A stretch of DNA of 64,000 nucleotides from IMG/VR virus record IMGVR_UViG_3300021960_000065, positions 2,565 through 66,564 of that record; one strand, given 5' to 3'. This stretch comes from a virus. Taxonomy: Duplodnaviria; Caudoviricetes. Of this stretch, positions 19,711-52,445 are shown piece by piece; within the stretch, counting starts at the first letter, position 1, and each line of letters begins with the position of its first letter. Position numbers and translations under genes: made by a program. The notes beneath the pieces were generated by a model. The model saw only the letters and a list, made by a program, of their open reading frames with translations. It did no database searches and was not told the DNA's origin.

Positions 19711-20877
19711 TCAACTCAAGTCACGGATTTTACCGCTTGCCTTGAAGAAAGCACAAATCAATTCGCCCATCGTGTGAAACATTCCCATTTGCCCCAAGCG
19801 GTTGATACCGAATGGGTCGCCCGTTTCAATACCGCTTTCGTGGTAAAGGGTAGGCTTGGCGGTGGTGAACCACAGGTAGTCGGTGTCAAGGAAATAGAGG
19901 CGAGAAGAACCGCCCGTTTCCTTGTGAACATCTTTGGAGGGGATGATTGGGACACCGTTGTAGGTAGCGACCATGAAGCCACCCTGAATGCCCGGAACAC
20001 CCTTCACACCATTGACACCCGGCACGACACGCTTCATTTCAACGAAGCGTTGTTGAGGTTGTAGCAATTGCTGAATGGTTTCAAGAGTGTCGTAGCCCGT
20101 AAGGATGACCTTTGGCTGACCGCCCGCTTCCCACACTTGTCGGAACATTCCGTCAAGGATGTTCAGGGACAATGCACGCTCGGCACTTGATGCACCTGCA
20201 TCCACTTGAGCGTCATACCACTGAGCCGACCCTGCGGTTTGACCTGCACGAGAGAGCGAATAGATGTTGTGATCCGATTCAGCACTCACATCGGTGAAGG
20301 TGTTGAAGTCCTCCACATAGGAATTGGAGGTGATACGGTCAAGGGACTCAAAGTCGTTTCCTGCGGTGGTATCAATGTCACTCAACAGCATTTGGTTGAT
20401 GTGTTCAGTGTGGTGCTTTGCCATTTCCATTTTGATGACAGCACGAGCATCACCAAGACCGTCATCCTTGTCAGCAAGGAACATGGCGGTTTCGGTGAGG
20501 TCAAAGGTGTGAGCCACAGTCTTTGGCTTCGTGCTAACCTCAGCGAAGGTTGGCTTGGTGGTTTCAGGGAGGGTTGCGTTCTCAGGAACACCGCCACCCT
20601 TCGTGAAGTCGGGCTTGGCGGTGGTGACACGCCATCCACTCTTCTCCCAAGGCTTCTTGGGGAGAATGCTGAAAGCGTTGAATTCTTGGTTCAATTGCGA
20701 CCAAACCTTGCGACCAAAAATCGCTTGGTAAGTGCCACTCGTTGAAGAGGCGAGAGGTGAATCGGCTTTCAAGAGGTCAGTGCCACTGTAAGCCCATGCG
20801 TTCTGTCCTGCACCTGCACCGTAATACAGGCGTTCCATGTCCTCAATTGTTCGGATATATCCTTGACTTCCACTCAT
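19711..20877 (-). CDS. Major capsid protein (HK97 fold)
   Basis: 388 aa after the protease; FSILPKKPW, F+SLDR, YNGVPIIPS, YFLDTD motifs; GGTGA RBS. Confidence 0.9.
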   Translation of the reverse strand: MSGSQGYIRTIEDMERLYYGAGAGQNAWAYSGTDLLKADSPLASSTSGTYQAIFGRKVWSQLNQEFNAFSILPKKPWEKSGWRVTTAKPDFTKGGGVPENATLPETTKPTFAEVSTKPKTVAHTFDLTETAMFLADKDDGLGDARAVIKMEMAKHHTEHINQMLLSDIDTTAGNDFESLDRITSNSYVEDFNTFTDVSAESDHNIYSLSRAGQTAGSAQWYDAQVDAGASSAERALSLNILDGMFRQVWEAGGQPKVILTGYDTLETIQQLLQPQQRFVEMKRVVPGVNGVKGVPGIQGGFMVATYNGVPIIPSKDVHKETGGSSRLYFLDTDYLWFTTAKPTLYHESGIETGDPFGINRLGQMGMFHTMGELICAFFKASGKIRDLS

Positions 20878-20888
20878 TTTCAATCACC

Positions 20889-22217
20889 TCAAAGGTTTCC
20901 TCCAACCATTGAACGATGGCCCAATTCTTCCAAAGCACGCCATGCGTCAAGTCCATTTCCAAGTGCTGCGTATTCGTCATGCGTCGGCACTCGCACAGCG
21001 TTCTCGGAAGGCACAGGAACGGCTGACTTTTGGATTTCAGCGTTCTCAGTGCGGAGGGAGTCAATTTCAGCCTTCAGGAAGGCGATTTGGGAAGTGAAGT
21101 CTTTGGACTTGTGGATTTCCAATGCTCGTTGCGTTTCGGCTTCGTAGCGTTCATTCCACTCCTTCTCCACAAGGGACTTCACAGCCTCTTCGTCACGGAT
21201 TGAGGCGTAGGTTCGGTAGCCACGCTCAAGGGACTCAGGGGAGAGGTCAGCACCCTTGATGACATTTCCACCCTTTGATTGTGGGTGTTGCATCTGTGGT
21301 GCGTTCTTGATGACATACTTGTTGGCACGAGCGTTGCCGAGAGCAGGTCGTGGGGCGAGGGTTGCATCCTCACCACTGCCGTAAAGGTCGCCTTGTCCTC
21401 GGTGGTTGAAACCATGTTCACCATCAACGCCCACCATGTAGGCTTTGCCGAGTCCAAAGTGACCTCGTAGGCCATCCAAATCAACACCTTGCTCGTGTGC
21501 GAATTTTTCAAGGGTGTCAATGTAGGCGACAGCCGATTGCTCGGCTTTGCCCAAGTCATCCTTTTCGCACTCGCACTCGGCCATGTTGCATGAACCGCAC
21601 ACCTTTGCGCTCTTTTCCATTTCTAAACCCTTGCTGATTCGGGCAAGGGCATCTCTTACTTCGGTCAAAACATTCGTTTCTTCTGTCATTTCGTTCACAT
21701 CCATTTTCAATAGGGTGTAGCGGGATTCAGGATTGATTCCCTTTTTGCACAGGGTAATTTCGTGCAATTCCATGTCCGTAATTTCCCTGTGGCTTCCATG
21801 TTCGGGAGTCGTCTTGTTCACTCGGAACAAGGCTTGTCCACCAATGGAGAATGCTCGCAATTCGCCGTTGCGAATTTGCTTTTGGACTTCACGGGCTTTT
21901 TCAATGTCGTTTCGGATTTGGCAAACCACGAATAGCCCGTGATCATCCACTTCGGATTTCCAAACCCGCCCTTCACTATCAGTGTAGGAAGGAAGCACTT
22001 GACCCACTTGAATACCGCTGTGGGCCAATTGAACATTACGATAGGATGGGTTGTCCATAAAGCCCCCAAATGCCTTCTTCAATGCACTAACGGGGATTCT
22101 GTCACCCTGCTTGTCCACCATATCAACGGAGGCATACCCGGCAATAACCAAGTCCCCATTGGAGTCGGACTTCAGGATGAAGTCTTGTCCAACAGCCGAC
22201 CATGTTGCCGTGTTCAT
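20889..22217 (-). CDS. Prohead protease fused to scaffold domain
   Basis: IAGYASVDMVDKQGD, LAHS (His), AFSIGG (Ser), LHEITLC..GIN; helical C-terminal half. Confidence 0.9.
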   Translation of the reverse strand: MNTATWSAVGQDFILKSDSNGDLVIAGYASVDMVDKQGDRIPVSALKKAFGGFMDNPSYRNVQLAHSGIQVGQVLPSYTDSEGRVWKSEVDDHGLFVVCQIRNDIEKAREVQKQIRNGELRAFSIGGQALFRVNKTTPEHGSHREITDMELHEITLCKKGINPESRYTLLKMDVNEMTEETNVLTEVRDALARISKGLEMEKSAKVCGSCNMAECECEKDDLGKAEQSAVAYIDTLEKFAHEQGVDLDGLRGHFGLGKAYMVGVDGEHGFNHRGQGDLYGSGEDATLAPRPALGNARANKYVIKNAPQMQHPQSKGGNVIKGADLSPESLERGYRTYASIRDEEAVKSLVEKEWNERYEAETQRALEIHKSKDFTSQIAFLKAEIDSLRTENAEIQKSAVPVPSENAVRVPTHDEYAALGNGLDAWRALEELGHRSMVGGNL

Positions 22218-27937: not shown

Positions 27938-29731
27938 TCATAAACCTAACCTCCGATTGAGGTTATTTAATTTTTCATCAACATTGGATTCGGCAGGGCT
28001 TCTTTCGCTTCGCCTGTCTTGAACGGTTTGGCTCATGTGATGCTCTCCGTCAAAGCGATTCACACGGTCAGGGCTTTTGCCACCACTTCTCCGTGAATGC
28101 AAATTCAATTGTGATTTGCCTCGTGTTCTCAATGGTCGCAAATCCGTTCCATGAGTGGTTGTCATAGCCGAAGGTATGGGGCGAGAGCCGTGAATGTCAT
28201 CCTCAACATTCCGTTTCCAAATTTCATCCATCGTTGGTGGTAAAATGTGGGATTTAGCCATCGCACCCCCACCTTGTTGCGGTGGCGCACCTTCGGGCGG
28301 TGGCCCTGCTTGTGGTGGTGGCGGTGGTGCTTCTTTGTAATCAAAGTGAAGGTAGCCATTGTCATCACGCAATTGAGCATCATAGCCCGCTTGCTTCATT
28401 TGCATCATGTTGCGGATAGCCATTTCATCCCTTCGCATAGCCATGATTTCATCCTCTTCCTCATGTGGATTGAGAGTGATTTCCCACTCGCTAATTTGAA
28501 GGGCTTCAAGCAATAGAGGGAATAGACGATTGTTATACAGGTTTTGACTTGAAGCCAAAGCCCGATTGGTGACGACAATTTGCATTCCTTCGTTGTTCAA
28601 GCCACCGCCCGACACATCATTCATAAACACATTTGACACACCGTAAAACGATGAAATGCGTTGGCGAATGTCGTCTTTGATCGGGATATATTGTAATTCT
28701 TCAAGGGTGTCCATCATACGCACATATTCAAGACCCCCACGACCCGTTTCTGTTTCAACACCAACCGTAGGAATGTATTGTGGGTCACGCTCAAGGTGTT
28801 CCTGAATGTTGCGTGCGGTTCGCTCAACGGTTTCAAGGTTGGATGATTTAATCACCATCACACCTCTCGGCATCCGCCTCTTTTGGTAAGCCGAATACAC
28901 ATAATTGTCCATCGCAATCAGCGTGTTCACTTGTCGCCATAGTGTAGCGACGGGCGAGCGACCATACAATTTTGAGGGCGACCATTTGCTCAAATGAATG
29001 ACTTCGCCTTCGGTATAGACCTGTCCTGCACCAACACCTGCGAGGTTCATGTAATGAATGGGAACAACGGGCAATCCTGTTTTCGGACATTTCTCATCCT
29101 TGTCGCTTGTGCGGAATGACCTGTCCAACAGGCTCGTGTATTGCTTGCCCCCACGCACACCACGCTTATCGGCAACGATACGCATGAAAATGGGGTCAGC
29201 ACGAGTGATTTCTTTGATGCGGTAAAATTGTGGTTGTCCTGTGTTGGGATCCACGAAATACTCCTTCGTGAGAATCAGGTATGCGTCATCAACAATGTTC
29301 AAGTCCATTTCCACTTCACGAAGGACTTCAAGGAATGATTGTGTCATTCGGTTGTCCTCGTGGAGAAGGGCGTTTGCATATTCCAATTGTCCCTTATCCG
29401 CCTCACGAACCTCGCCTCCGCACATACGGCACGAGTCCACTGCCTTGTTGTATTCTTCATCGCACTCTCGGCACTTCTTCACAAATTTTGGTTTCCATGT
29501 CCAACCTTTGCGGAATGTTTCAGTCGCCAAGTGATTGAGAATTGAACGCAACACCAAACACTCGTATGAGGCAGCGTATAGTGCGGGGATGGTAATACCC
29601 TGCAACAATGGAGGCTCTTGGACACCTGTGGTGAACAATGGCATCTGTGGCGTGGGTGTTTCATGGCGTTCCATGTCCATGCCAAGAGCCGAAAACAAAC
29701 GGTCAATGCGTTTCTTTTCACTCATGGGCAA
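27938..29731 (-). CDS. Portal protein with zinc-ribbon insertion
   Basis: DLNIVDDAYL, EVIH..KWSPSKLYGRSPV, RISSFYGVSN; position between TerL and protease. Confidence 0.88.
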   Translation of the reverse strand: MPMSEKKRIDRLFSALGMDMERHETPTPQMPLFTTGVQEPPLLQGITIPALYAASYECLVLRSILNHLATETFRKGWTWKPKFVKKCRECDEEYNKAVDSCRMCGGEVREADKGQLEYANALLHEDNRMTQSFLEVLREVEMDLNIVDDAYLILTKEYFVDPNTGQPQFYRIKEITRADPIFMRIVADKRGVRGGKQYTSLLDRSFRTSDKDEKCPKTGLPVVPIHYMNLAGVGAGQVYTEGEVIHLSKWSPSKLYGRSPVATLWRQVNTLIAMDNYVYSAYQKRRMPRGVMVIKSSNLETVERTARNIQEHLERDPQYIPTVGVETETGRGGLEYVRMMDTLEELQYIPIKDDIRQRISSFYGVSNVFMNDVSGGGLNNEGMQIVVTNRALASSQNLYNNRLFPLLLEALQISEWEITLNPHEEEDEIMAMRRDEMAIRNMMQMKQAGYDAQLRDDNGYLHFDYKEAPPPPPQAGPPPEGAPPQQGGGAMAKSHILPPTMDEIWKRNVEDDIHGSRPIPSAMTTTHGTDLRPLRTRGKSQLNLHSRRSGGKSPDRVNRFDGEHHMSQTVQDRRSERSPAESNVDEKLNNLNRRLGL

Positions 29732-30965
29732 TCACCTCAAACGCTCGCTTCAATTTGTCCTCCGACATTCCCCACGCCTTGAGCAATTCAACCTGCTCTT
29801 TCTTTGAAGCGTAGGTGTAGGTCAAAAGACGCATAGCCGTTTCATCGCCTTCATAGGATTTGAGCAAAACCGCAGCATTCCTTTTGTTTTCATTCAAATG
29901 TGGATAGGCTTTACGGATTGCCTTTTGCACTGAAAGGTCGCCTTCAATGACGAATTGGCGATCTTCCCACATAATGTTGCCCACGCCAAGACTCTCCTTT
30001 AACACAACGGTAAATTCATCACCTCTTTTGCTCGTGAACGGCAAAAACAAACGAGGCGAACCTGATGGCGTAATTTCCAAGTGTCCACCAACATCCCAAA
30101 GGTTAGCGATGAAATTGTCAGCATTTTTGAGCATAATTTTGGGGGACTGTTTGCCGTAAAGCAGTGCCTTTGAGTCATTATTCCTCGCTTTGCCAACCAC
30201 TTCAATATCAAATAAAAAGCCGTGTGATTTGATGAGCATGGCAATTTCAGCCGAAGTCGCTGTGCTATGTGATGCGAGCATTTGTGAAGTCATCCCACCA
30301 TAATCGTCTATGTTTTGTGATGCTTTGCTCAATATGTCATATTCTCGTCGGCTCAAACGACTTTCAGCGTTGAGTCGGTTAGACCATTTTTTCCATATTG
30401 CTTCTCGTGTTTCTTCGTCAGCGTTTCGTGACGAAACAACCGCTTTACGAAACAGGAATTCCAAGCGTTCACCATGCGTAGCGAGCATATTGAAATCGTT
30501 ATCACGGACATCAATGTGTCCCCAATCGCTGTCACGCCACCATGAAAATTCTTTGAGCAAAGCATCCTGTTCCTGCTTTAACAAATTGATTAGGCGAGGG
30601 ATAATGGCTTCTTCACCATTTTCCTGCATGATTTTAATTATTTGATCGCCACTCGCGCCAAAATTGTCCATGAAATAACTGCGTGTTATTCCCACCATTG
30701 GCGTTGCCGTTGTTCCCGGTTGGTCGGTTGGCATCCCTTCATTTTCGTTGCCCGAAAATCCTTGAATCTGTGAACCCGCTGTTGCTTGAGGTGGCATTTC
30801 CTGCTGTTGCTCTTGTTGAGTGCTTTTGGCTTCCTCTTGTTTTGCTTCTTCCAATTCTTTGGTTTTTTCAGCAACCTTCTCCGAAGCCATTTGCTGATTG
30901 TTTGGCAACAATTTGAGGATGGCACTATCCATCGTATTCAGCATGGGATTCCATTCAATTTTCAT
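29718..30965 (-). CDS. Protein with degenerate LAGLIDADG-like C-terminal domain
   Basis: FIANLWDVGGHLEIT..GSPRL, LKESLGVGNI, AIRKAYPHL..KRNAAVLL. Confidence 0.5.
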   Translation of the reverse strand: MKIEWNPMLNTMDSAILKLLPNNQQMASEKVAEKTKELEEAKQEEAKSTQQEQQQEMPPQATAGSQIQGFSGNENEGMPTDQPGTTATPMVGITRSYFMDNFGASGDQIIKIMQENGEEAIIPRLINLLKQEQDALLKEFSWWRDSDWGHIDVRDNDFNMLATHGERLEFLFRKAVVSSRNADEETREAIWKKWSNRLNAESRLSRREYDILSKASQNIDDYGGMTSQMLASHSTATSAEIAMLIKSHGFLFDIEVVGKARNNDSKALLYGKQSPKIMLKNADNFIANLWDVGGHLEITPSGSPRLFLPFTSKRGDEFTVVLKESLGVGNIMWEDRQFVIEGDLSVQKAIRKAYPHLNENKRNAAVLLKSYEGDETAMRLLTYTYASKKEQVELLKAWGMSEDKLKRAFEVIAHE

Positions 30966-32398
30966 GCGTCAGCCCACCCTATTCTCTTTGTCCAAGCCTC
31001 GCTGTCAAGAATCACGATGCTGTCTTTATACTCTTTCGTAGCCTGAACCGCAAGGGCGAGGGCAATAACTGTATCGTCGTGTTTTCCAAGCGACTCCATT
31101 TTACCATTCGGCAACATGGTGAACATGGACAATTCGTTTATCAAAATGTCCATCAATCTTCGTGTAGCCCCATCCTCTTTGTAGGGCAAAATCAAATGCC
31201 GTTGTTCAAAGTGCAATTGAAGAGTGTGAATGACCGCTTCTTTTTTCATACGGCTCATGGTGAATGGTTTGATGGGCAAATCGCTGATTTCTTTCAACAC
31301 TTGATGAAATGCCTGTGCGAAATTGTTGGTTTCCAATTCCACAATGACGGGATTGTAGCGAGTGTTCAATTCTATGATTTTGTCAATTTGGTCGTTGAAT
31401 GACATTCCTTTTTCACGGTGCATCCAAACCACACGCTTGTGTCGGTTTTCATCCACCGCAATCACGACCATGCAGGTGTAGTCGGCTGAACGATCAGGGC
31501 TGATTGCAGGATCCCAACCAATGTAATAATTCACATCCTCTCGGTTGGGGTCGGCATACGGGTCAAATTCAAACGCATATTCCAAGTCCTTACATGGCTC
31601 AACCATATCTTCGGGAAATAGACTCGCATCGCTCGCAATTGGGCGACACAGGTATTCACGGGTAAATGCAATTGAAGTCATTTCGCTTCTTCGCCCTTGT
31701 AGTGCCTCAAGACTCCAACGCTCAGGCCACAGCGGTTCACCCGTCTGCTCACTAATGGCGGGGTATTCACGGACTTGATACCCACTCAAACCCTTCAATT
31801 CTTGGTAAAGGTCGGTGTAGGAGAACGGAGTGCCGACAATGCACAATTGTGCTGAGTGGTGAAGCACAGGCAACAAAGCGGTGTAAAACCACGAAGCGAT
31901 GTGTGCTAATTGTGTTGATGCTTCACTTGACAGAATATCGTCAAGCACCACGATGTCAGGGTGCGCGCCACGCACAGCCTTACCGACTGACATAGCCGAT
32001 ATGGATGATTTGTTTGTCATTTTGAATTTCTGTTTCGCCCATCCTCGTGCGGGTTTCAAGTGCGAAAGCACAGGATTTGACTCAATCAATTCATTCATTT
32101 TCCCCATGTGTTCAATTGACTGATGCTGACTGTGTGAAAAGAATAGCACTTCTGTGCCGGGATTGTAGGCCATTTTCCATAGCAAATAGACTCGGTAAAA
32201 CACCGATTTGCCGTGATCACGAGAAGCGATTACACAGGTTTTGTTGTGTTCCTCCGACATGGCAAACCATTCTTCGTGAAAGTCGGCTAATTGATAGCCT
32301 TCTTCTTTGCCACAAATGTCCTCAAAAAAGAATTTGAAATCCCTTCGGCCCATTTCCCAATCCACTTTATTGGCGAGGTCAAGGACACCTGCTGACAC
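30962..32398 (-). CDS. terL: Terminase large subunit
   Basis: Walker A ASRDHGKS, Walker B VVLDD, VGTP, nuclease IGWDPA...ADYT, HDDTVIALALA. Confidence 0.95.
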   Translation of the reverse strand: MSAGVLDLANKVDWEMGRRDFKFFFEDICGKEEGYQLADFHEEWFAMSEEHNKTCVIASRDHGKSVFYRVYLLWKMAYNPGTEVLFFSHSQHQSIEHMGKMNELIESNPVLSHLKPARGWAKQKFKMTNKSSISAMSVGKAVRGAHPDIVVLDDILSSEASTQLAHIASWFYTALLPVLHHSAQLCIVGTPFSYTDLYQELKGLSGYQVREYPAISEQTGEPLWPERWSLEALQGRRSEMTSIAFTREYLCRPIASDASLFPEDMVEPCKDLEYAFEFDPYADPNREDVNYYIGWDPAISPDRSADYTCMVVIAVDENRHKRVVWMHREKGMSFNDQIDKIIELNTRYNPVIVELETNNFAQAFHQVLKEISDLPIKPFTMSRMKKEAVIHTLQLHFEQRHLILPYKEDGATRRLMDILINELSMFTMLPNGKMESLGKHDDTVIALALAVQATKEYKDSIVILDSEAWTKRIGWADA

Positions 32399-38744: not shown

Positions 38745-39539
38745 TCACCTCCAATGTGGGTGGACTGTGTTGCGTGTTCCGCACTTAGGACAGCGTTTTT
38801 GTTCCCACTCTTGAGGGGTTTGAATGTAGCCACAACCTCGGCATTGGAGGTCGTTATCAGTCCAACCTTCATCCTCGCCTTCTTCAAGGTCATCCCAAGA
38901 CTTTTTGTTAATGGTTTTACTACAAAACGGGCAATCTCCCCTGCCTTCTGTCAATTTGTCATAATCAAGAGGCTCAATTTCAAAGTCACGCTCTTGGTAG
39001 GATTCGTCTGTGTTTGGCCCATAGCGATCAAAATCCGTATAGGTTTCCATCATTACATCGCCAATGTCTTGACCGCAAACGGGACAATCGCCACCCGAAG
39101 TGTGCAAATTTTCCATCCCTTCAATGTCCAAGTCTTTGATGCGTTCCATGTAGCCACATTCACCGCAAGCAAAATTGAGTCGCCCATTTTCTTCTTGCAT
39201 AATCAAACCTTCTCCACGACACTCAGGGCATTGGTGCGAGGATATTGCTCTTGGTTCATTCTTGACAATTCCCCAACCCACAACAAACGCCTTTGCCATC
39301 CCTTGATGGCTCGCGCAATACTGCCCCTCGCTATCAACACGAGCCATGCACATTGAATTAGCACAGGTTGGATAGGTCAAGAAGCGTTTCTTTTCAAAGG
39401 ATTTCTTCAAATCCTTGTCTTTGTAGCATGGGCATTTTGGGTCACTCTTTGAGCAATTCATTACGCCTTTTTTCATGCACGCACATGGGCTTGATTTTGT
39501 AGCCCCACAACAACATGAATCACGCTTCAACAATTCCAC
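38745..39539 (-). CDS. Cys-rich multi-zinc-ribbon protein with internal tag (probable GTG start)
   Basis: Many CxxC pairs; AFVVGWGIVK|N. Confidence 0.65.
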   Translation of the reverse strand: MELLKRDSCCCGATKSSPCACMKKGVMNCSKSDPKCPCYKDKDLKKSFEKKRFLTYPTCANSMCMARVDSEGQYCASHQGMAKAFVVGWGIVKNEPRAISSHQCPECRGEGLIMQEENGRLNFACGECGYMERIKDLDIEGMENLHTSGGDCPVCGQDIGDVMMETYTDFDRYGPNTDESYQERDFEIEPLDYDKLTEGRGDCPFCSKTINKKSWDDLEEGEDEGWTDNDLQCRGCGYIQTPQEWEQKRCPKCGTRNTVHPHWR

Positions 39540-40135
39540 CTCTTCAATGCAGCACCCTTTGGTGTCAATTTGCCACCTTTGCTCGTTGGCCCTTTTACCC
39601 CGCCCATCCGAGCGCAAAACGACTTTCGCCTCTTGGCTTTCTTTGAACCGGGTTTGAGTGTTGATGGTTTTTCAGTGACGGGGGGTTTGAGGTTTGCACC
39701 CTCTTCACGCTTGAATTTTGCACGCCCTTTTGCATTCAACCCACCTTCACGACTGTGGCGATTTGGGTTGTAGCCATGAAACGGTTTGTCGGACTTTTTG
39801 CTCAACAACGCTTTCGCCAATGTGTCACAGGTTTCGCAATTACACGCTGACTTTTTTGTGTCACTTGGCACACAATTTGGGACTTTTTTGCCCCGCTTGG
39901 TTTTCATGCCCACTTGTTCGTAGCCATCCCAACACGGATCTTCTTTGACAACCCCTCTTGGGCCTGTCCAATATCCACTTGCGATTCTTGCGAATTCGCA
40001 TTGATTACAATAGCCGGGTATTACCACCTTTCCCCGATAGCGAGGCCGTGTAGGATCTATGGGGTTTCCACAATTGTCGCATGGTTCATCCATTTTGACA
40101 ATTTGCCACACCTTATTGAAAGTGGATGACATCAT
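39527..40135 (-). CDS. Tagged protein with CWxGY module and basic RRKSFCARM domain
   Basis: TFNKVWQIVK|M; PCWDGYEQVGMK..GKKVPNCVP; GGLNAKGR...RRKSFCARM...ALKRWNC, which I recall from T4-like marine phage proteins. Confidence 0.7.
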   Translation of the reverse strand: MMSSTFNKVWQIVKMDEPCDNCGNPIDPTRPRYRGKVVIPGYCNQCEFARIASGYWTGPRGVVKEDPCWDGYEQVGMKTKRGKKVPNCVPSDTKKSACNCETCDTLAKALLSKKSDKPFHGYNPNRHSREGGLNAKGRAKFKREEGANLKPPVTEKPSTLKPGSKKAKRRKSFCARMGGVKGPTSKGGKLTPKGAALKRWNC

Positions 40136-40554
40136 CGTTGCCCCCTAAATTTGTTGTAGGTTGCCGCCACTTTCAACGGCAACGAGGAATACCACTTGGC
40201 TAATTTTGGCGTAGCCGAATAGGAACGCACCATAGGCTTGAAGGCTTCATCAATTGCTTTAAGCAATTCATCGGCTTCTTTTCGTGAAACCATCGGCAAA
40301 GGTTGTGCTAAATCGCTGAAAGCCATACGAATAACAACAATTGCCCCGTATGCTTCCTCCGCATATTTCGTGTGCGTTTCCATCCCAAAAGCATCCAAAC
40401 CCTTCGCCCACAGTCGCACCGTTTCCTCCAATGCGTCACAAAGCGTGGAGGTTTGTTCTATGGACAAGATGTTGCTTGGGGTTTCCAAAAGCGACCCATA
40501 TTCCGTGTTTTTCAACATGAGTGCGGGAATGGTTTGGTAGTCTTTGTCACTCAT
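40132..40554 (-). CDS. Hypothetical helical protein
   Basis: Coupled ORF with GGTGA RBS. Confidence 0.6.
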   Translation of the reverse strand: MSDKDYQTIPALMLKNTEYGSLLETPSNILSIEQTSTLCDALEETVRLWAKGLDAFGMETHTKYAEEAYGAIVVIRMAFSDLAQPLPMVSRKEADELLKAIDEAFKPMVRSYSATPKLAKWYSSLPLKVAATYNKFRGQR

Positions 40555-41257
40555 CACCAAGCACCCCCGCATCAGCCAAAGCCTTTCGCATCATTCGCCA
40601 TTCGTCAGGCGACTTCTCGCTAAAGTGAGCCTGTATAACGGTCAGCACATTAACCTGTTGTGAATTTTCAATGTTCTCGGCTGTGCTTAGGTGTTTTGCT
40701 AAGTCGCCAAGTGTGTCACGGACTTCACGGTGCAATTTCACCGCAGCATCCAATCCTTTGTAGTCAAGCATTCCCGTTTCTTCCCGTTCCGCTTGCATCA
40801 AATTGAGGTGATCGTTGAACAACCCATTCAAGCGTTGAAGGTTGCTATCGGTTTGACGAATGGCATCGGCTACACTCGTGATAGCCGTTGGCAACGCTTC
40901 AATTGCCGCCTGTCGCTGAATAACAGGCTGAGTGTGATTTTCCATGTGGTGTGATAAAGCACTTGAAGAAACCTCCAAATCCTCAGCCATTTGGTCTATG
41001 TCAATCAAACGCTCAAGAATGGCGACTTCAATGTTGGCTCGCTCAGGGTGTGTGCAAAGCGGGCAATCGCTATTGCTGTTGTTGTGATATTCACCCGAAT
41101 GTCGCCTCATGTGCCTGTGAGCCGTTCCTTCCGCCCAATCCTGATTACGATCCATGTCTTGAACATCAATCAGCCCAATGCGGATATTCTGTTCCATCGT
41201 GTCACGACTTGGGTGCAAACAGAAGGGGCAATTCCGCCTTGTCTGCCGACCCACCAT
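40547..41257 (-). CDS. Putative terminase small subunit (two CxxCxHP-HTH-HxxxH repeats plus coiled coil)
   Basis: CPFCLHPSR...HMRRH and CPLCTHPER...HMENH; first gene of the block leading to terL. Confidence 0.5.
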   Translation of the reverse strand: MVGRQTRRNCPFCLHPSRDTMEQNIRIGLIDVQDMDRNQDWAEGTAHRHMRRHSGEYHNNSNSDCPLCTHPERANIEVAILERLIDIDQMAEDLEVSSSALSHHMENHTQPVIQRQAAIEALPTAITSVADAIRQTDSNLQRLNGLFNDHLNLMQAEREETGMLDYKGLDAAVKLHREVRDTLGDLAKHLSTAENIENSQQVNVLTVIQAHFSEKSPDEWRMMRKALADAGVLGDE

Positions 41258-41276: not shown

Positions 41277-41484
41277 TCATTTATTTGGTTGCCGATGATG
41301 ATAGCAATATCCATTATGGATGGCCTCTTTGCGACACGGCTCACCCGCCCTTGTCACACCTTTACAGCGACCACTATCAAGGAATTCCTTTTTGACAACG
41401 ACCTTTTCTTGTAGTGGTTGGGGTTTTAGAGGCTGTTCCACTTTTGGAGGTTGCCATTGACTCCTGTTCGCCTCAATACCGAAA
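41277..41484 (-). CDS. Small CxxxTxxGxxC...CxxH zinc-finger ORF, start unclear
   Basis: RCKGVTRAGEPCRKEAIHNGYCYHH; only a GTG at 41441 or a +1 shift from the upstream gene could start it. Confidence 0.55.
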
Positions 41485-41721
41485 GGAAGAATACTGACGC
41501 ACAGCCACCGTGAAAGTGAATAACATTCCAAAGAAAAAGCCCATGATTTGACTCGTGGACATTTCCGGGCCTTTCCACATCATAATTAAAAATCCCATAA
41601 GGATAAATGAAATGATGAAGATCATGGTTGCACTTTCAACGAGCATTTTTTGCGGGCTTAACAGATTGACACCTGCACTTGCCCAATTGATTTCAGCCTC
41701 TTTGTTTCGTTCTTCCGCCAT
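41473..41721 (-). CDS. Small membrane protein (2 TM)
   Basis: Two hydrophobic stretches; GAGGTG RBS. Confidence 0.75.
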   Translation of the reverse strand: MAEERNKEAEINWASAGVNLLSPQKMLVESATMIFIISFILMGFLIMMWKGPEMSTSQIMGFFFGMLFTFTVAVRQYSSFRY

Positions 41722-41731
41722 TTGTCACACC

Positions 41732-42391
41732 TCACAGAACCGCAGCACCGCCTAATGCAGCACCCGTTTTCATCATATTGCCCATTCCGCCTTGTTGTTG
41801 CACTTGATTACCAAGCATACCACCGAGAAGGCTTCCAAAGAAGCCGGGTTGATTTTGTTGCATCATACCCCCACCTTGCTGATGAGCCATGAGGAACATT
41901 TGCATTTGCTGTTGGTTTTGGTTGAGAATTTGTTGTGCTTGGGATTGAACCCTTTGGAGTGTCAAGGCCAAATTTTCACTTGAAAGGGTCTGCAATTGAG
42001 AAGGCATCGTGGCTGTGTCCAATTTGATAGCATCGCCTTCTTGTTTGAAATTAACACCTGAAAAGAAGTCTTTCATGCACATGAGCATGATTTCACCCAT
42101 CAATTCCATAATCATCGGCAAATTTTGCGACACAATGAACATGGACATTGGGTCATACATTTGAAGCATTTTGGAGGTTGCCACCACAGGGTCGTTTGCC
42201 GCCTGTTGCATCATTGGATTTTGGGATTGCATCATCATCATAGTTGGATCCATGCCATAGCCACCCATGCCCATGCCCATACCCATGTTGCCCATGCCCA
42301 TGTTGCCCATGCCCATCATGTTGGGTTGTCCCATTTGCCCACCACCAAAAGTGGTTGTGCTGTCCGTTTTATTTCCTCCAAACAATCCCAT
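41732..42391 (-). CDS. Met/Gly/Gln-rich protein with glycine-zipper-like C-terminus
   Basis: MGLFGG start, GNMGM repeats, GFFGSLLGGMLG...GAALGGAAVL. Confidence 0.75.
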   Translation of the reverse strand: MGLFGGNKTDSTTTFGGGQMGQPNMMGMGNMGMGNMGMGMGMGGYGMDPTMMMMQSQNPMMQQAANDPVVATSKMLQMYDPMSMFIVSQNLPMIMELMGEIMLMCMKDFFSGVNFKQEGDAIKLDTATMPSQLQTLSSENLALTLQRVQSQAQQILNQNQQQMQMFLMAHQQGGGMMQQNQPGFFGSLLGGMLGNQVQQQGGMGNMMKTGAALGGAAVL

Positions 42392-42399
42392 GTTATCAC

Positions 42400-43305
42400 C
42401 TATTGCGCGGCCATTTGTTCCTGCATCATCGTGGTATTCACTTGTTGTGGTGCGATGCCCACCATTTGCTGTTGTTGAGCCATTTGTTCCATTTGTAAGG
42501 CTCGCAAATCAAAAGTCACCGTCACCAAATCCGCTACACCTGAAACGGGGTTAGGGTGTTGGGTTAAAGTCACTCCCTTTGAATGCTGTGCGTCCTGTTG
42601 AATCATGTTGAAAAATTCAGCGTATTTCAACAACGACTCAGGGGTTGAACGGTTTTGTGCCTTAGACGAACCCGAAAAACCCGGCACACGCATGAAGCGT
42701 GTTCCCTTTGATACCTTTGAGAATCCTTCTTGTTCAAGGGTGTGTTCTTCAATCATGCACCGAAGGGTGTGATAAATGTGCAAATGTGCAGGGCAAAGTG
42801 TGCTTGACATTTCATCCCCGTGATCGCCATGCGTGCGTGCGTGAGGCTTTCGTGCCTGTTGAGTTTCCTCATCAAACCAATAAATGTCAGCCAACGATAA
42901 TCCTGTTCGCTCATCGCTAATGTGGTGATAGGCGTTATCGCCCTCAAGGAAACGCCTTACATCCACACCACAACAGGCACACTCGTGTGCTGCATTGTAG
43001 CGATACACCTTGAACAAACCCAAATTGTAATTTGGTGGTCGGAGAGCCTTGCGAAGCATTTTGATGTTTTTCTTTCGTGCCTTTACGGGGTTCTTGGGGT
43101 TGGTAATCAATTTGATTTCAACCGTAGGGATGACAATTTCTTGATCCATACCTGCGCCCTGTGACCCTGACGAAGCCATTTCAGCCCGTTGCTGTGCCTT
43201 GAGGAATTCAAAAGCGATACCCGTTTGGGATGAAAGGGTTCTCAAATCGGCATCCGATAACCCGTTAAGCGACATTCCGCCACGAGCGAATGGGTTCATA
43301 CGCAT
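42400..43305 (-). CDS. Putative zinc-binding protein (probable start MRMNPF)
   Basis: ECACCG...LCPAH; GGAGG RBS before 43305. Confidence 0.65.
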   Translation of the reverse strand: MRMNPFARGGMSLNGLSDADLRTLSSQTGIAFEFLKAQQRAEMASSGSQGAGMDQEIVIPTVEIKLITNPKNPVKARKKNIKMLRKALRPPNYNLGLFKVYRYNAAHECACCGVDVRRFLEGDNAYHHISDERTGLSLADIYWFDEETQQARKPHARTHGDHGDEMSSTLCPAHLHIYHTLRCMIEEHTLEQEGFSKVSKGTRFMRVPGFSGSSKAQNRSTPESLLKYAEFFNMIQQDAQHSKGVTLTQHPNPVSGVADLVTVTFDLRALQMEQMAQQQQMVGIAPQQVNTTMMQEQMAAQ

Positions 43306-43322
43306 AGACTCCCTCCGAACCA

Positions 43323-43336
43323 TGTGAGTCCTAACA
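43323..43336. promoter_or_regulatory. Palindromic operator-like site TGTGAG-TC-CTAACA
   Basis: Same consensus at 62223 and 63055. Confidence 0.45.
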
Positions 43337-43358
43337 TATTCAAAATGGTTTCCCCCCC

Positions 43359-44087
43359 TCACAACATTTGAACCGTGTCATAAATGGCACGCTCAACATT
43401 CAATCCATATTGGGCTGACATAGCCTCAACATTCGTGGCAATTCCCGCTTTACGCAAACGCCTCATTTCCTCTTGAAAAGGCAACACCAAAGGGTGTTGT
43501 CGCTTCATGCCTTCATCCCACATCCTTTGAGAATCAACATCCCACCACAAATCCATTTTGTTCACCAACAAACACACGACCTTTGGTTTGAAAATTTTCG
43601 CCTTTTTCTTCAAATAACGATTGAAAGACTTTGGGTATTTCGTGTTCGTCATAATGTCCACGAGGTATTTCAATCCTCCAACGGCTTCGCCCAACAGGTA
43701 TTGGGATTGCAGGATTCGGTGATCAACAACATAGAAAACAATGCTGATATTTCGCCCAACCATGTCCTCAGCCCACATATTCCAATAACGAGCCTGTCCT
43801 CCGAAGTCAGCGGTGGATATGGGGATTTTTTCACCATTCCATCGCACCTGTTTCTTTGTTGTGTGAGGCATGGTGAATTGTCCATGCTTCATGGCATGTG
43901 TTGTGCGGAGTGCTAACGGTATTGGCTCAATGTCACCCGGCACAGTCAGGTATTGGTCTAAGGTTGTTTTACCCGACATAGACGGGCCATAAACACCGAA
44001 TTTGTGCGGTTTGAGGATTCTGTAAATGTATGACCCCAATTGTGCTGAACCAAGCAACAAATGCCCAACAAACATCCATGACGACAT
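43359..44087 (-). CDS. Ras-superfamily small GTPase, Arf/Sar1-like
   Basis: G1 GPSMSGKT, G2 T in LRTTH, G3 DFGGQ..YW..W, G4 NKMD, G5 SAQ; hydrophobic N-terminal helix. Confidence 0.85.
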   Translation of the reverse strand: MSSWMFVGHLLLGSAQLGSYIYRILKPHKFGVYGPSMSGKTTLDQYLTVPGDIEPIPLALRTTHAMKHGQFTMPHTTKKQVRWNGEKIPISTADFGGQARYWNMWAEDMVGRNISIVFYVVDHRILQSQYLLGEAVGGLKYLVDIMTNTKYPKSFNRYLKKKAKIFKPKVVCLLVNKMDLWWDVDSQRMWDEGMKRQHPLVLPFQEEMRRLRKAGIATNVEAMSAQYGLNVERAIYDTVQML

Positions 44088-44092
44088 TTAAA

Positions 44093-44317
44093 TCACGCAC
44101 CAAACATCCATTCCCATACGGATGTTGGTGTGATTTGCCAAAACGCATCAAGTCCGACCATTACAAGAAACGAAAGCGAAGCACCAACCAAGAAGGCGAG
44201 AATTGCTTTGATTGTCCAAGTCATGCGCTCAAGCCTTCGCTCATAGGCGTTTTCAGCGAGAATACTCGCCATCGCTTCCGCCTGTCTTTCTTGTTGTGTG
44301 TTGAACGGCCAAGCCAT
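44093..44317 (-). CDS. Small membrane protein (1 TM)
   Basis: Hydrophobic segment AILAFLVGASLSFLVMVGL. Confidence 0.7.
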   Translation of the reverse strand: MAWPFNTQQERQAEAMASILAENAYERRLERMTWTIKAILAFLVGASLSFLVMVGLDAFWQITPTSVWEWMFGA

Positions 44318-44330
44318 GATAATGCCTCAG

Positions 44331-44777
44331 TTATTGCTGTTCAGGTTCTTTTTTGGACTCTTCGGTTTGAACGGGAACGGTAAATGTGGTTGATTGTTGT
44401 TGTTGTCCGTAATTGCCGTTGTAAAATTCTTGGTTGCTTGAATACTTTCGCATTCTTCGTGCTTGAAGGCGAGCCTGTTGCGTTTGCCACTTGTCATAAC
44501 GGGATTCTTGAGCGAATTCCGCACGCATAGCGAGGCTATCACGAAGCCCACCCACATGAAACAGCACCATTGACAAACATAGGAAACCGAAAGAAATCAA
44601 ACCGAATTGAAGGCCCAATTCACCCGCACTCGCATCAGGCAAATACCACCCCAAGTGTGATACTCCAACAGCAGTGCCGACCAACAATGATTGCCACAGC
44701 AACATGGCGATCAAGTTAATGTCAATTCGGTTTTCATCCATCGCCCAAGGCGGAACAGGCGGTTTCATTTCTTGCAT
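44331..44777 (-). CDS. Membrane protein (2 TM) with polar C-terminal tail
   Basis: Two hydrophobic segments; GGAGG RBS. Confidence 0.75.
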   Translation of the reverse strand: MQEMKPPVPPWAMDENRIDINLIAMLLWQSLLVGTAVGVSHLGWYLPDASAGELGLQFGLISFGFLCLSMVLFHVGGLRDSLAMRAEFAQESRYDKWQTQQARLQARRMRKYSSNQEFYNGNYGQQQQSTTFTVPVQTEESKKEPEQQ

Positions 44778-44779
44778 CG

Positions 44780-44920
44780 TTAATCATCCTCCTTCTTTTG
44801 TTTGTTGAAATACTCGCTAATGATGTGATTGATGAACGAGGATTTTGACTCACGCCCCCTCGCAGCCTCCATTTTAGCAAATAAATCATCGCTCATCACG
44901 ACTGACACATGACGGCTCAT
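44780..44920 (-). CDS. Ribbon-helix-helix (CopG/Arc-like) regulator, 46 aa (below ORF-track cutoff)
   Basis: MSRHVSVVMSDDLFAKMEAARGRESKSSFINHIISEYF. Confidence 0.75.
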   Translation of the reverse strand: MSRHVSVVMSDDLFAKMEAARGRESKSSFINHIISEYFNKQKKEDD

Positions 44921-50782: not shown

Positions 50783-50843
50783 GTGTTTTGCACGCCTCTT
50801 CAATTGAAAATCCTTTTTGTTAAGGTTGTCAACCATCACAGGG

Positions 50844-50851
50844 TTAATATG
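50844..50851 (+). promoter_or_regulatory. TATA-like element TTAATATG upstream of the thermosome gene
   Basis: About 25-30 nt before ATG 50874 in a divergent intergenic region. Confidence 0.45.
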
Positions 50852-50873
50852 CTTGGTTTGTGTGGCGGTGAAC

Positions 50874-52445
50874 ATGATGCCCAACGGTCAAGCACCCGTA
50901 TTCATTTTGCGTGAAGGAACAGAAAGAAGTCATGGTCGTGTAGCCCAATCCAACAATATCGCTGCGGCACGAGCCGTTGCCGATGCTGTGCGTTCAACGC
51001 TTGGGCCGAAGGGCATGGACAAAATGCTCGTTGATGAGGGCGGTGATGTCATCATCACAAACGATGGGGCTACAATCCTTCGTGAAATGGACATTGAACA
51101 CCCCGCAGCGAAGATGATTATTGAAGTGTCAAAGACTCAAGAGCAGGAGTGTTATGACGGCACTACAACGGCAGTTATCCTCTCAGGTGAATTGTTGAAG
51201 AAGTCGGAGGAATTGATTTCACAAAACATCCACCCAACCACCATTTGCGACACATTCCGTAAAGTCGGAACGGAATTGAATGCGATGATTGACGACTTGG
51301 CGTTTGACGGTGATGCTGATGCTCTTTTGAGCGTGGCTCAAACCTCGCTCACGGGCAAATCCGCAGGTTCAATCAAGGAATTCTTGGGTCGCATTTGCGT
51401 TGATGCTGTCGCACGCCTCTCAGCGAGTGGTCGTGTGGACTTGAATGAAATCATGGTCGTCAAGGCTGTCGGTGGCGAGGCTATTGACAGTCGCTTGGTT
51501 TCATCAGTGGTTCTTGACAAAGAACGCTGTCACCCCAATATGCCCATTTCAGTCACCTCACCGAAGGTTTTGCTTTACAACAATTCCCTGATGGTGCAAA
51601 CCACTGAAATGGATGCCAACATCCAAATCACCGACCCCAATCAAATCACCGCATTCCTTGAGCAAGAAGAGGAATTCCTTCGCAACCTCGTTAATGACAT
51701 TGTGTCAAGCGGTGCAAAGGTGGTCGTTTGCCAAAAGGAAATTGATGATTTGGCAAAGCATTACCTTGCCAAAGCGGGTGTTCTCGCTGTTGAAAAAGTC
51801 CCCAAGTCCGACATTGAGGCTTTGTCACGAACCACAGGGGCTTCAATCCTGAATAACCTTGAGGATGTGCGGGCAGGAGAGGATGTTTTGGGCGAATGTG
51901 GCTTGGTTGAGGAAAAGAAAATCGGTGAATTGCCGATGGTTTTCTTTGAAGATCCTGCAAACGCTGTGCCTGTCACTCTCATCCTTCGTGGTGGGACTGT
52001 TCCTTTCGTTGAGGAAATTGAGCGTGCCTTTGACGATGCCGTTGGTGTCGTGTCCGTTGCTCACGAGGATGGCAAAGTGCTAACGGGTGGCGGGTCTGTT
52101 TTCGCTGCGCTTTCGCACAAATTGCACGACTTGGCTCAAACCCAACATGGTCGTGAGCGTATGGCGACTGAGGCGTTTGCCGAAGCGTTGCTTGTTGTTC
52201 CTCGCACGCTCGTGGAGAACGCAGGGCTTGACCCCGTTGATGAAATGATGACACTACGCACCCACCACGCATCAAACGACAACACCGCATACGGTGTTAA
52301 TGTCTTTGAGGGTGGTTTGGCGGATATGGCTGAGGCAGGAGTCTTTGAGCCAAAGCGTGTGGTTGCTCAAGCAATCAAGTCAGCGGTTGAAACCGCTATT
52401 ATGATTCTCCGCATTGACGATGTGATTTCATCAAAGAAGGCTTAG
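50874..52445 (+). CDS. ths: Thermosome subunit (group II chaperonin)
   Basis: [40 protein letters not shown]; helical protrusion present. Confidence 0.97.

Follow-up and report, generated by a model that had tools for sequence, protein, structure and literature searches.

A loosely Arf-like small GTPase family in a conserved gene cassette of magrovirus-like tailed viruses

What is a small GTPase that resembles the Arf proteins doing in a tailed virus, and how closely is it related to them? This question is raised by a stretch of viral DNA of 64,000 nucleotides (Duplodnaviria; Caudoviricetes), called the window here, which spans positions 2,565 to 66,564 of the IMG/VR record IMGVR_UViG_3300021960_000065, a linear virus record of 66.6 kb that is estimated to be 63% complete. 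A gene with an ATG start on the minus strand of the window (positions 43359–44087) encodes a protein of 242 amino acids, P0001, which an initial annotation made from the sequence alone had described as an Arf/Sar1-like GTPase and as a possible membrane-remodelling switch. The translation of this open reading frame (ORF), an AlphaFold2 model and 102 homologous protein clusters confirm that it is a real gene for a conserved, virus-specific small GTPase with a GTPase fold, conserved nucleotide-binding motifs and a fixed gene neighbourhood. We assign a probability of roughly 0.5 to the reading in which the protein is a working guanine-nucleotide switch that forms its own family of the Ras superfamily, is confined to magroviruses and is Arf-like in kind, with a membrane-linked role that it would fulfil together with partners encoded in the same gene cassette.

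The initial annotation had claimed a complete set of G1–G5 motifs, and each of these is found in the translation and is conserved in the family. Specifically, the G1 motif or P-loop, GPSMSGKT (residues 34–41; 43965–43988), fits the Ras-superfamily pattern GxxxxGK[ST]. It is followed by an extended switch I (residues 44–76; 43860–43958) that is defined by invariant alignment columns with the near-invariant pattern LDQYLTVPGDI..PIP...RT.H, and in which T62, retained in 106 of 110 full-length cluster representatives, is likely the G2 threonine. The G3 motif and switch II together make up DFGGQARYWNMWAED (residues 94–108; 43764–43808), and the G3 sequence DFGGQ (residues 94–98), which fits DxxG, stands at the beginning of DFGGQARYWNMW (residues 94–105). 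NKMD (residues 176–179; 43551–43562) provides a G4 motif of the NKxD type and SAQ (residues 224–226; 43410–43418) a G5 motif of the SA type. All of these segments, as well as the others described below for this protein, are read from the minus strand.

Conservation among the 110 representatives is strongest at the positions expected to contact nucleotide or to define switch II, including K40 (107), D94 (109), G97 (109), N176 (108), K177 (109), D179 (107) and W105 (108), and the representatives that depart at these positions or at T62 are mostly those with alignment gaps. The least conserved motif residue is Gln98, at the catalytic position, which is Q in 81 sequences, D in 21, H in four, E in two and A in one. 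The first residue of G5 also varies (S in 81, A in 24), as does switch II position 102 (R in 60, W in 37). Across the family, switch II takes the Arf-type form G-G-Q-x-x-F/Y-R/W-x-x-W, and DFGGQARYWNMW itself fits the Arf-type pattern DxGGQxxxRxxW. The likeness to the Arf sequence DVGGQxxxRxxW that had been pointed out earlier therefore holds, as GGQxxFRxxW is present and its final Trp is nearly invariant.

The protein departs from standard small GTPases in four ways: by an uncharged hydrophobic N-terminal helix (residues 1–27; 44007–44087), by its long and conserved switch I, by a Lys-rich helix before G4 and by an insert after G4. The Lys-rich insertion (residues 146–169; 43581–43652) lies between alpha-3 and beta-5, includes a modelled helix at residues 157–165 and aligns with a similar insert in an Asgard group of ~210–230 amino acids that is discussed below. 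The post-G4 insert (LWWD...; residues 180–201; 43485–43550) coincides with extra helices in the model at residues 178–181 and 184–191, and its W181 is near invariant (107 of 110). In hhalign alignments, parts of the switch I stretch are common to an Asgard Arf-like group with a Zn-ribbon and to ArvA-like proteins.

An AlphaFold2 model built from 32 sequences (mean predicted local distance difference test score (pLDDT) of 89.3 and predicted template modelling score of 0.86) indicates that the protein has a Ras-superfamily GTPase fold. Strands and helices succeed one another as in small GTPases and form a six-stranded sheet with five helices, to which the model adds the N-terminal helix (residues 2–25), the long switch I loop, helix 157–165 and helices 178–191. 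A Foldseek comparison with the PDB yields 1302 chains at E ≤ 0.001. The 50 top matches listed are all small GTPases, namely Rab, Rap, Ras, Ral, Rho/Rac and one Arl3, with E values near 1e-8 and target TM-scores of 0.6–0.7. Because Rab, Rap, Rac and Ras chains are placed level with Arl3, this comparison resolves the superfamily and not the subfamily. In a viral structure library, the 50 top matches listed, almost all of them proteins of giant viruses that infect eukaryotes, are of the Rab/Ras/Ran type apart from a few translation-factor GTPases. Those Rab, Ras and Ran proteins are likewise small GTPases encoded by viruses, but they are close copies of eukaryotic host families, whereas the family described here has no close cellular counterpart and resides in a tailed archaeal virus.

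The genes around the GTPase identify the virus as tailed. On the same strand, the window encodes a large terminase (30962–32398), a portal (27938–29731), a head maturation protease (20889–22217) and a major head protein (19711–20883), and the GTPase gene lies ~11 kb upstream of the terminase gene. A full-length group II chaperonin (Cpn60_TCP1, 543 bits; 50817–52445) is encoded on the plus strand, opposite to almost all other genes of the window.

Relatives of the GTPase are confined to ~100-kb marine magrovirus-like contigs. The 102 homologous clusters contain proteins of 144–257 amino acids, with E values down to 1e-146. A phmmer search of 1.84 billion protein representatives returned 68 sequences at E ≤ 0.001, none longer than 277 amino acids, which are family members, fragments and a 273-amino-acid protein (P0166; E = 3.3e-4); no ordinary Arf, Ras, Rab or other small GTPase is among these matches. 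When 185,579 species genomes were scanned, relatives were found at six loci. One of these is in a single-cell genome of Poseidoniales, on a contig of 106 kb that is probably a magrovirus genome caught inside a host cell. That contig also carries a large terminase that is 77% identical to the one in the window and lies ~10 kb from the GTPase gene, as in the window, which leads us to assign the window to a magrovirus-like tailed virus whose hosts are Marine Group II archaea. Together with the head genes and the chaperonin, this bears out the earlier attribution of the gene to a tailed archaeal virus. The other five loci reside on contigs of 8–16 kb in metagenome-assembled genomes (MAGs) labelled Parvibaculum, Maricaulis, ‘Promethearchaeati’ and ‘Methanobacteriota’, and are probably mis-binned viral DNA. 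The GenBank phage collection gave no match to the GTPase by tblastn.

A survey of magroviruses and of genomes from the host order gives the same division. Relatives are encoded on 256 viral contigs, and the family profile matches one of 201 genomes of the order to which the Poseidoniales single-cell genome belongs, the match being that same viral contig. Moreover, at E ≤ 1e-6 neither Pfam Arf nor Pfam Ras is found in any of 101 genomes of this order, compared with six and eight positives, respectively, among 14 control genomes. As the genomes searched represent a sample, many of them incomplete, the absence applies to those genomes. An ArvA-like query had no match in the 101 genomes, a result of little weight given that it was run without a positive control. 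The initial annotation had allowed that the protein might prove to be a common host gene, and the counts for the family profile, Pfam Arf and Pfam Ras speak against that outcome.

Some members have generic names in public databases. Two clusters carry the Joint Genome Institute (JGI) label ‘GTPase SAR1 family protein’, which we take to be a generic COG label, and other members are called ‘putative GTPase domain-containing protein’. The word ‘GTPase’ does not occur in the main texts of four papers on magroviruses or archaeal tailed viruses, PMC5434244, PMC10160649, PMC11706807 and PMC8651126, the supplementary gene tables of which may list the gene. A literature search for GTPases of magroviruses or Marine Group II viruses and for virus-encoded Arf-type small GTPases in archaea, in which relevance was judged partly by title, found nothing relevant.

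Models of known GTPase families recognize the protein poorly. For P0001, the sole Pfam matches are to Gtr1_RagA (21 bits, with the cut-off at 22), Ras and Roc (13.5 bits, with the cut-off at 27), all below threshold; Pfam Arf (PF00025) is not listed at E ≤ 10, nor was it found in the record. Across 22 family members, Pfam matches are to Arf in 11, Roc in 10, Ras in nine, MMR_HSR1 in eight, Gtr1_RagA in four and SRPRB in two, all of them weak, and the 11 Arf matches, counted at E ≤ 0.1 as for SRPRB, reach a best E value of 7e-4 and stay below the family threshold. Membership of the Rag/Gtr group is not indicated, as the Gtr1_RagA match covers residues 76–196 only and the protein stops after the G domain, without a C-terminal roadblock. 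NCBIfam reports TIGR00231 alone (18 bits against a cut-off of 42.5), and PHROGs gives a chance-level P-loop match (E = 0.036).

The sequences of solved structures lean towards Arf. When the family profile is compared with PDB sequences, the best match is Asgard GerdArfR1 (8OUN; E = 3.2e-6), followed at E values of 0.005–0.35 by a truncated GerdArfR1, Arl10C, Arl8A, Arl10B, Arl6, a trypanosomatid ARF and Arl8B. The 20 matches at E ≤ 1 comprise ten Arf/Arl proteins, three Rab33B proteins and seven unrelated P-loop proteins, and include no chain of Sar1, SR-beta or MglA; MglA is also missing from the 50 top Foldseek matches listed. Kinship with ordinary MglA or Roc, the other outcome that had been allowed for at the outset, is therefore not seen. 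The description of the protein as ‘Arf/Sar1-like’ survives in its first half, on the strength of switch II, of the match to GerdArfR1 and of nearest relatives that are Arf-like, but Pfam scores remain below threshold and the Sar1 half has no signal behind it.

The nearest cellular relatives are found in Asgard archaea. In the phylum to which the ‘Promethearchaeati’ MAG belongs, 33 of 151 genomes match the family profile, in every case weakly. The best of these matches (up to 43.7 bits) belong to the group of ~210–230 amino acids, which carries D-N-P-G-D at G3 and whose members came from Asgard-phylum genomes (L089, L090, L092, L099, L107, L117 and L168). This group may be Rup3, as a candidate only; Vargova et al. 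(bioRxiv 10.1101/2024.02.28.582541) describe Rup3 as a Heimdallarchaeial group with unusual insertions. Next are proteins of ~290–300 amino acids with an N-terminal Zn-ribbon-like domain, among them P0166, then Arf-type proteins of 298 amino acids and a group of ~205 amino acids that bears the NCBI name ‘Era-like GTP-binding protein’. Most of these relatives fall under Arf in Pfam. The PDB matches of the Zn-ribbon group are Arl6, GerdArfR1, Arf1, Arf6 and a G-alpha construct, and those of the ~210-amino-acid group are Arl proteins in 20 of 20 cases. By comparison, a control set that scores 136–162 bits on Pfam Arf represents true ArfR, as its best PDB match is 8OUN at 5.8e-34, followed by Arf1.

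Profile-to-profile comparison by hhalign ranks the Zn-ribbon Arf-like group closest to the viral family (score 124), followed by the ~210-amino-acid group (108), the Era-like or ArvA-like group (91, or 95.7 with 40 sequences), the 298-residue Arf-type proteins (81.5) and, below ArfR and Ras-type proteins, Rag (70). In a language-model atlas, the clusters that come after the viral ones are in part clusters with Pfam Arf. The Zn-ribbon group, represented by L091, L093 and P0166, consists of Asgard proteins of ~273–298 amino acids in which an N-terminal Cys-pair domain precedes an Arf-like G domain. It shares 25–28% identity with the viral family over ~130 columns, a match that is limited to the N-terminal two thirds, and it resembles the viral proteins in its partly common extended switch I, in a switch II of the form DxGGQxDFWxLW and, in one member, in a P-loop of the type G-P-S-M-A-G-K-T. 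Unlike the viral proteins, its members are cellular, have ~100 extra N-terminal residues in place of the hydrophobic helix and lack the Lys-rich insert. The ~210–230-amino-acid group, which provides the best direct cellular profile matches, shares the Lys-rich insert before NKxD, a motif in alpha-3 and the switch II Trp, but differs in having no N-terminal helix, in its G3 sequence and in its post-G4 region.

Trees place the viral family on a long branch of its own. In a tree of 77 rows it forms one clade (99 in the Shimodaira–Hasegawa-like approximate likelihood ratio test (SH-aLRT)) with a stem of 1.2 changes per column, and this clade joins other long branches in an open fork, the join with the ~210–230-amino-acid group being flagged as long branches meeting. 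A reduced tree of 62 rows leaves out 15 rows (seven of the ~210–230-amino-acid Asgard group, three ArvA-like, two longin-GTPase, and L159, P0149 and P0115) and puts the viral family beside the Zn-ribbon Arf-like group (SH-aLRT 90), far from the Ras clade. Both trees are quick searches whose references are Asgard proteins picked from Pfam matches. The sequences lean to the Arf side because the switch II motif, the best matches and the nearest relatives are all Arf-like, and the comparisons suggest a family whose divergence is too great for a position within the Arf/ArfR clade.

The N-terminal helix distinguishes the family further. It is conserved at G8-H9, Y22-R23 and P27 (G8 in 88, H9 in 83 and P27 in 100 of the 110 representatives), and in the model strand beta-1 (residues 28–33) comes directly after it. 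The first ~20 residues are free of charge in 32 family members, and in P0001 no charge precedes R23; the two charges of the helix are both at its end, within a conserved Y-R-x-L-[RK]-P sequence that leads into beta-1. Among the 32 members, mean hydrophobicity is 0.8–0.9 (Fauchere–Pliska scale) and the helical moment is 0.1–0.2, whereas Asgard ArfR helices, analysed in the same way, have values of 0.25–0.45 and ~0.4, with six to eight charged residues. An amphipathic helix of the Arf kind was accordingly rejected on composition. Of the ‘hydrophobic/amphipathic’ helix that had been proposed before G1, the hydrophobic character is confirmed and the amphipathic character is not. The helix may be a weak anchor, or may pair with adjacent small membrane proteins or with another partner.

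Candidates for such partners are encoded around the gene, in a cassette that is retained in 80 viral loci whose GTPases range from 38% to 99% identity. The stop codon of the GTPase gene overlaps the listed GTG start of o320 (42400–43362), and a homologue of o320 comes next after the GTPase in each of the 80 loci. The o320 protein has Gln-rich tails, an invariant Cys128 and a C-P-x-H-x-H-x-x-H motif (C190–H198), and these Cys and His residues are probably a metal site. Its model has a pLDDT of 71, with no PDB fold match at E ≤ 0.001 and 62 at E ≤ 10. A predicted complex of the GTPase with o320 (score 0.01, mark 0.32) carries no weight for or against binding. The next gene encodes a Met/Gly/Gln-rich protein of 219 amino acids (41732–42391), found after o320 in 71 of 80 loci; it has repeats of the MGMGNMG type, and public sequencing runs differ by indels of 3 and 15 nucleotides in the repeat near 42274–42296. 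Farther along are an 82-amino-acid protein with a hydrophobic segment (41473–41721; 48 of 80 loci) and o236 (40547–41257; 79 of 80 loci), a protein of 236 amino acids that has two C-P-x-C-x-H-P motifs and a sub-threshold match to DUF7367 only. Neither o320 nor o236 has a hydrophobic segment. Like the GTPase gene, all of these are on the minus strand.

Upstream of the GTPase gene, also on the minus strand, small hydrophobic proteins prevail. Immediately adjacent is o74 (44093–44317), which encodes 74 amino acids with one hydrophobic segment (Kyte–Doolittle 19-residue maximum of 2.45) and has a tblastn homologue in 49 of 80 loci, followed by o148 (44331–44777; 148 amino acids, two hydrophobic segments; 47 of 80 loci) and, at the head of the block, o46 (44780–44920; 46 amino acids, no Pfam match at E ≤ 0.01; 47 of 80 loci). 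In distant loci, other small hydrophobic ORFs replace these three. Indeed, a small ORF with a hydrophobic segment occurs within 1.3 kb upstream of the GTPase gene in 72 of 75 loci, compared with 11 of 79 for one control window and 13 of 60 for another. Pfam and PHROGs contain no match for o320, the Met/Gly-rich protein, o74, o148, o357, o722 or o504. In one metatranscriptome run, which contained 12% of the sampled words, eight short contigs fell on neighbouring genes, whereas the GTPase ORF had none; at very low depth and with DNA carry-over possible, this carries no information on expression. Elsewhere on the minus strand, a 202-amino-acid protein (39527–40135) has a C-terminal part with counterparts in 13 PHROG families of unknown function (best E = 3.7e-19); it recurs at varying positions in related loci with 68–98% identity, as a mobile or shared domain would.

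These features are consistent with a model in which the protein cycles between GTP and GDP states while its N-terminal helix tethers it either to the host membrane or to the small membrane proteins whose genes lie just upstream. In its GTP state, the protein would engage the orphan proteins that are always adjacent, o320 and the Met/Gly/Gln-rich protein, and would thereby control a membrane-linked step late in infection, for instance the formation of a site of assembly or exit. The sampled genomes of the likely hosts have no Arf- or Ras-type GTPase, and therefore the virus would bring the whole switch.

Several observations weigh against this model. The catalytic Gln is substituted in 28 of the 110 representatives, and hydrolysis may therefore depend on a partner or vary from one subgroup to another. 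The membrane link is indirect, in that the role in membrane remodelling is inferred from the gene neighbourhood. Furthermore, the helix lies under the usual transmembrane threshold, with Kyte–Doolittle 19-residue maxima mostly of 0.9–1.4 (0.94 in P0001), and its moment is low. On these values, together with its hydrophobicity, it falls short both of a classical amphipathic helix and of a clear transmembrane segment, and hence matches no classical membrane anchor; its modelled confidence is low (pLDDT 54–71), and it could pack against a protein partner instead. The scores behind the Arf leaning are weak. The hhalign scores of ArfR (79.5) and of Ras-type proteins (73–76.5) are close and come from small, uncalibrated alignments. 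Approximately unbiased (AU) tests leave both an ArfR grouping (p = 0.40) and a Ras grouping (p = 0.38) of the viral family unrejected, on a reference set of Asgard sequences that lacks eukaryotic Arf, Sar1 and SR-beta as well as labelled MglA. The phylogeny that had been suggested as a check on the first assignment thus yields a separate long branch, adjoining an Arf-like group in the reduced tree, and leaves the choice between ArfR and Ras undecided by the AU test.

Other explanations must be weighed against the same evidence. The GTPase could be soluble and regulate either the assembly of virions or the packaging of the genome, as would suit a block that lies upstream of the packaging and head genes on the same strand, near-constant neighbours (o320 and o236) that are devoid of hydrophobic segments, and a helix that is below the transmembrane threshold and not amphipathic. 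We consider this unlikely, given that small membrane-protein genes precede the GTPase gene far more often than they occur in the control windows. In addition, ~20 uncharged residues at the N terminus of a small GTPase are the layout of the membrane-tethered proteins SR-beta and Arf. A rather doubtful alternative is that the protein belongs to the Arf family proper and descends from an Asgard-type ArfR, in which case GTP would shift the interswitch and expel the helix from its pocket, so that the helix enters the membrane and effectors are recruited. Such an origin would explain why GerdArfR1 is the best PDB match and Arl8, Arl6 and Arl10 come next, and it agrees with the G-domain fold, with switch II and its near-invariant Trp, with a helix placed right before beta-1, with an hhalign alignment to ArfR that is full-length and includes the N-terminal region, and with the AU result for a clade with ArfR. 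However, the Ras grouping is equally unrejected, the family falls outside the ArfR clade in both trees and below every Pfam threshold, and its helix lacks the charged face and the moment of ArfR helices. Unlike Arf and ArfR, the viral proteins also have three large insertions, namely a switch I that is ~17–30 residues longer, the Lys-rich pre-G4 insert and the post-G4 insert, in addition to SAQ at G5. The distribution differs as well. In Vargova et al. (bioRxiv 10.1101/2024.02.28.582541), GerdArfR1 (PDB 8OUN/8OUM) is an Asgard Arf-related protein and ArfR is reported only from Asgard archaea and one korarchaeial branch, whereas the viral family is carried by a virus of Thermoplasmatota.

A further candidate is the archaeal vesicle-forming GTPase ArvA (OapA, HVO_3014), of which the viral family might be an offshoot that drives vesicle budding or the release of virions by budding. 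Mills et al. (PNAS 2024, PMC10927574) describe ArvA/OapA of Euryarchaeota as a small GTPase on which vesicle formation in Haloferax depends and whose N-terminal helix is proposed to touch the membrane, and the spread of the ‘Era-like GTP-binding protein’ group over Jordarchaeia, Micrarchaeota, Altiarchaeota and Hydrothermarchaeota resembles that given there for ArvA. This group aligns full-length with the viral family and has in common with it the N-terminal helix and layout, a G-I/V-Y-G sequence before the P-loop, GKTTL and a switch I like I-P-x-E-T-R. Its identity with ArvA is nevertheless presumed rather than confirmed, its G3 region is of the Era type, it has a different insert and no Lys-rich one, and it scores below both Asgard Arf-like groups. 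Moreover, tailed viruses are not known to bud, and we regard descent from ArvA as improbable. Least of all do we expect an ordinary passenger gene taken from the host, be it MglA, Roc or a common Poseidoniales GTPase. The JGI name for two clusters would fit such an origin, but the sampled host-order genomes yielded the one viral contig and no Pfam Arf or Ras, MglA is missing from the PDB profile matches at E ≤ 1 and from the 50 top Foldseek matches listed, and the gene has been kept with its neighbours across viral lineages that diverge to 38% identity. The reading that we prefer is a separate, magrovirus-confined family of guanine-nucleotide switches with a loosely Arf-like character.

Extended further, this reading leads to a tentative and rather speculative proposal, namely that magroviruses, which rank among the most abundant archaeal viruses of the sea, bring with them a complete membrane machine under GTP control, one that is absent from their hosts and builds a site of exit or assembly. 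Such a machine might consist of an Arf-like switch on a hydrophobic helix, the small membrane proteins, the Cys/His orphan and the Met/Gly/Gln-rich protein.

Surface oceans teem with Marine Group II archaea and with the viruses of these archaea (PMC5434244 and PMC10160649), and how tailed archaeal viruses exit from their cells is largely unknown. A deeply conserved viral GTPase cassette, in viruses for whose likely hosts a sample of 101 genomes shows no GTPase of the Arf or Ras type, offers a concrete candidate for a membrane-linked step of infection. The family also bears on how Arf-like switches have spread, as it is a distant relative of Asgard Arf-like groups that is found in viruses of Thermoplasmatota. 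If the proposed membrane machine is real, it would constitute a new mechanism of egress or remodelling, and an Arf-type membrane switch would be at work outside eukaryotes and Asgard archaea.

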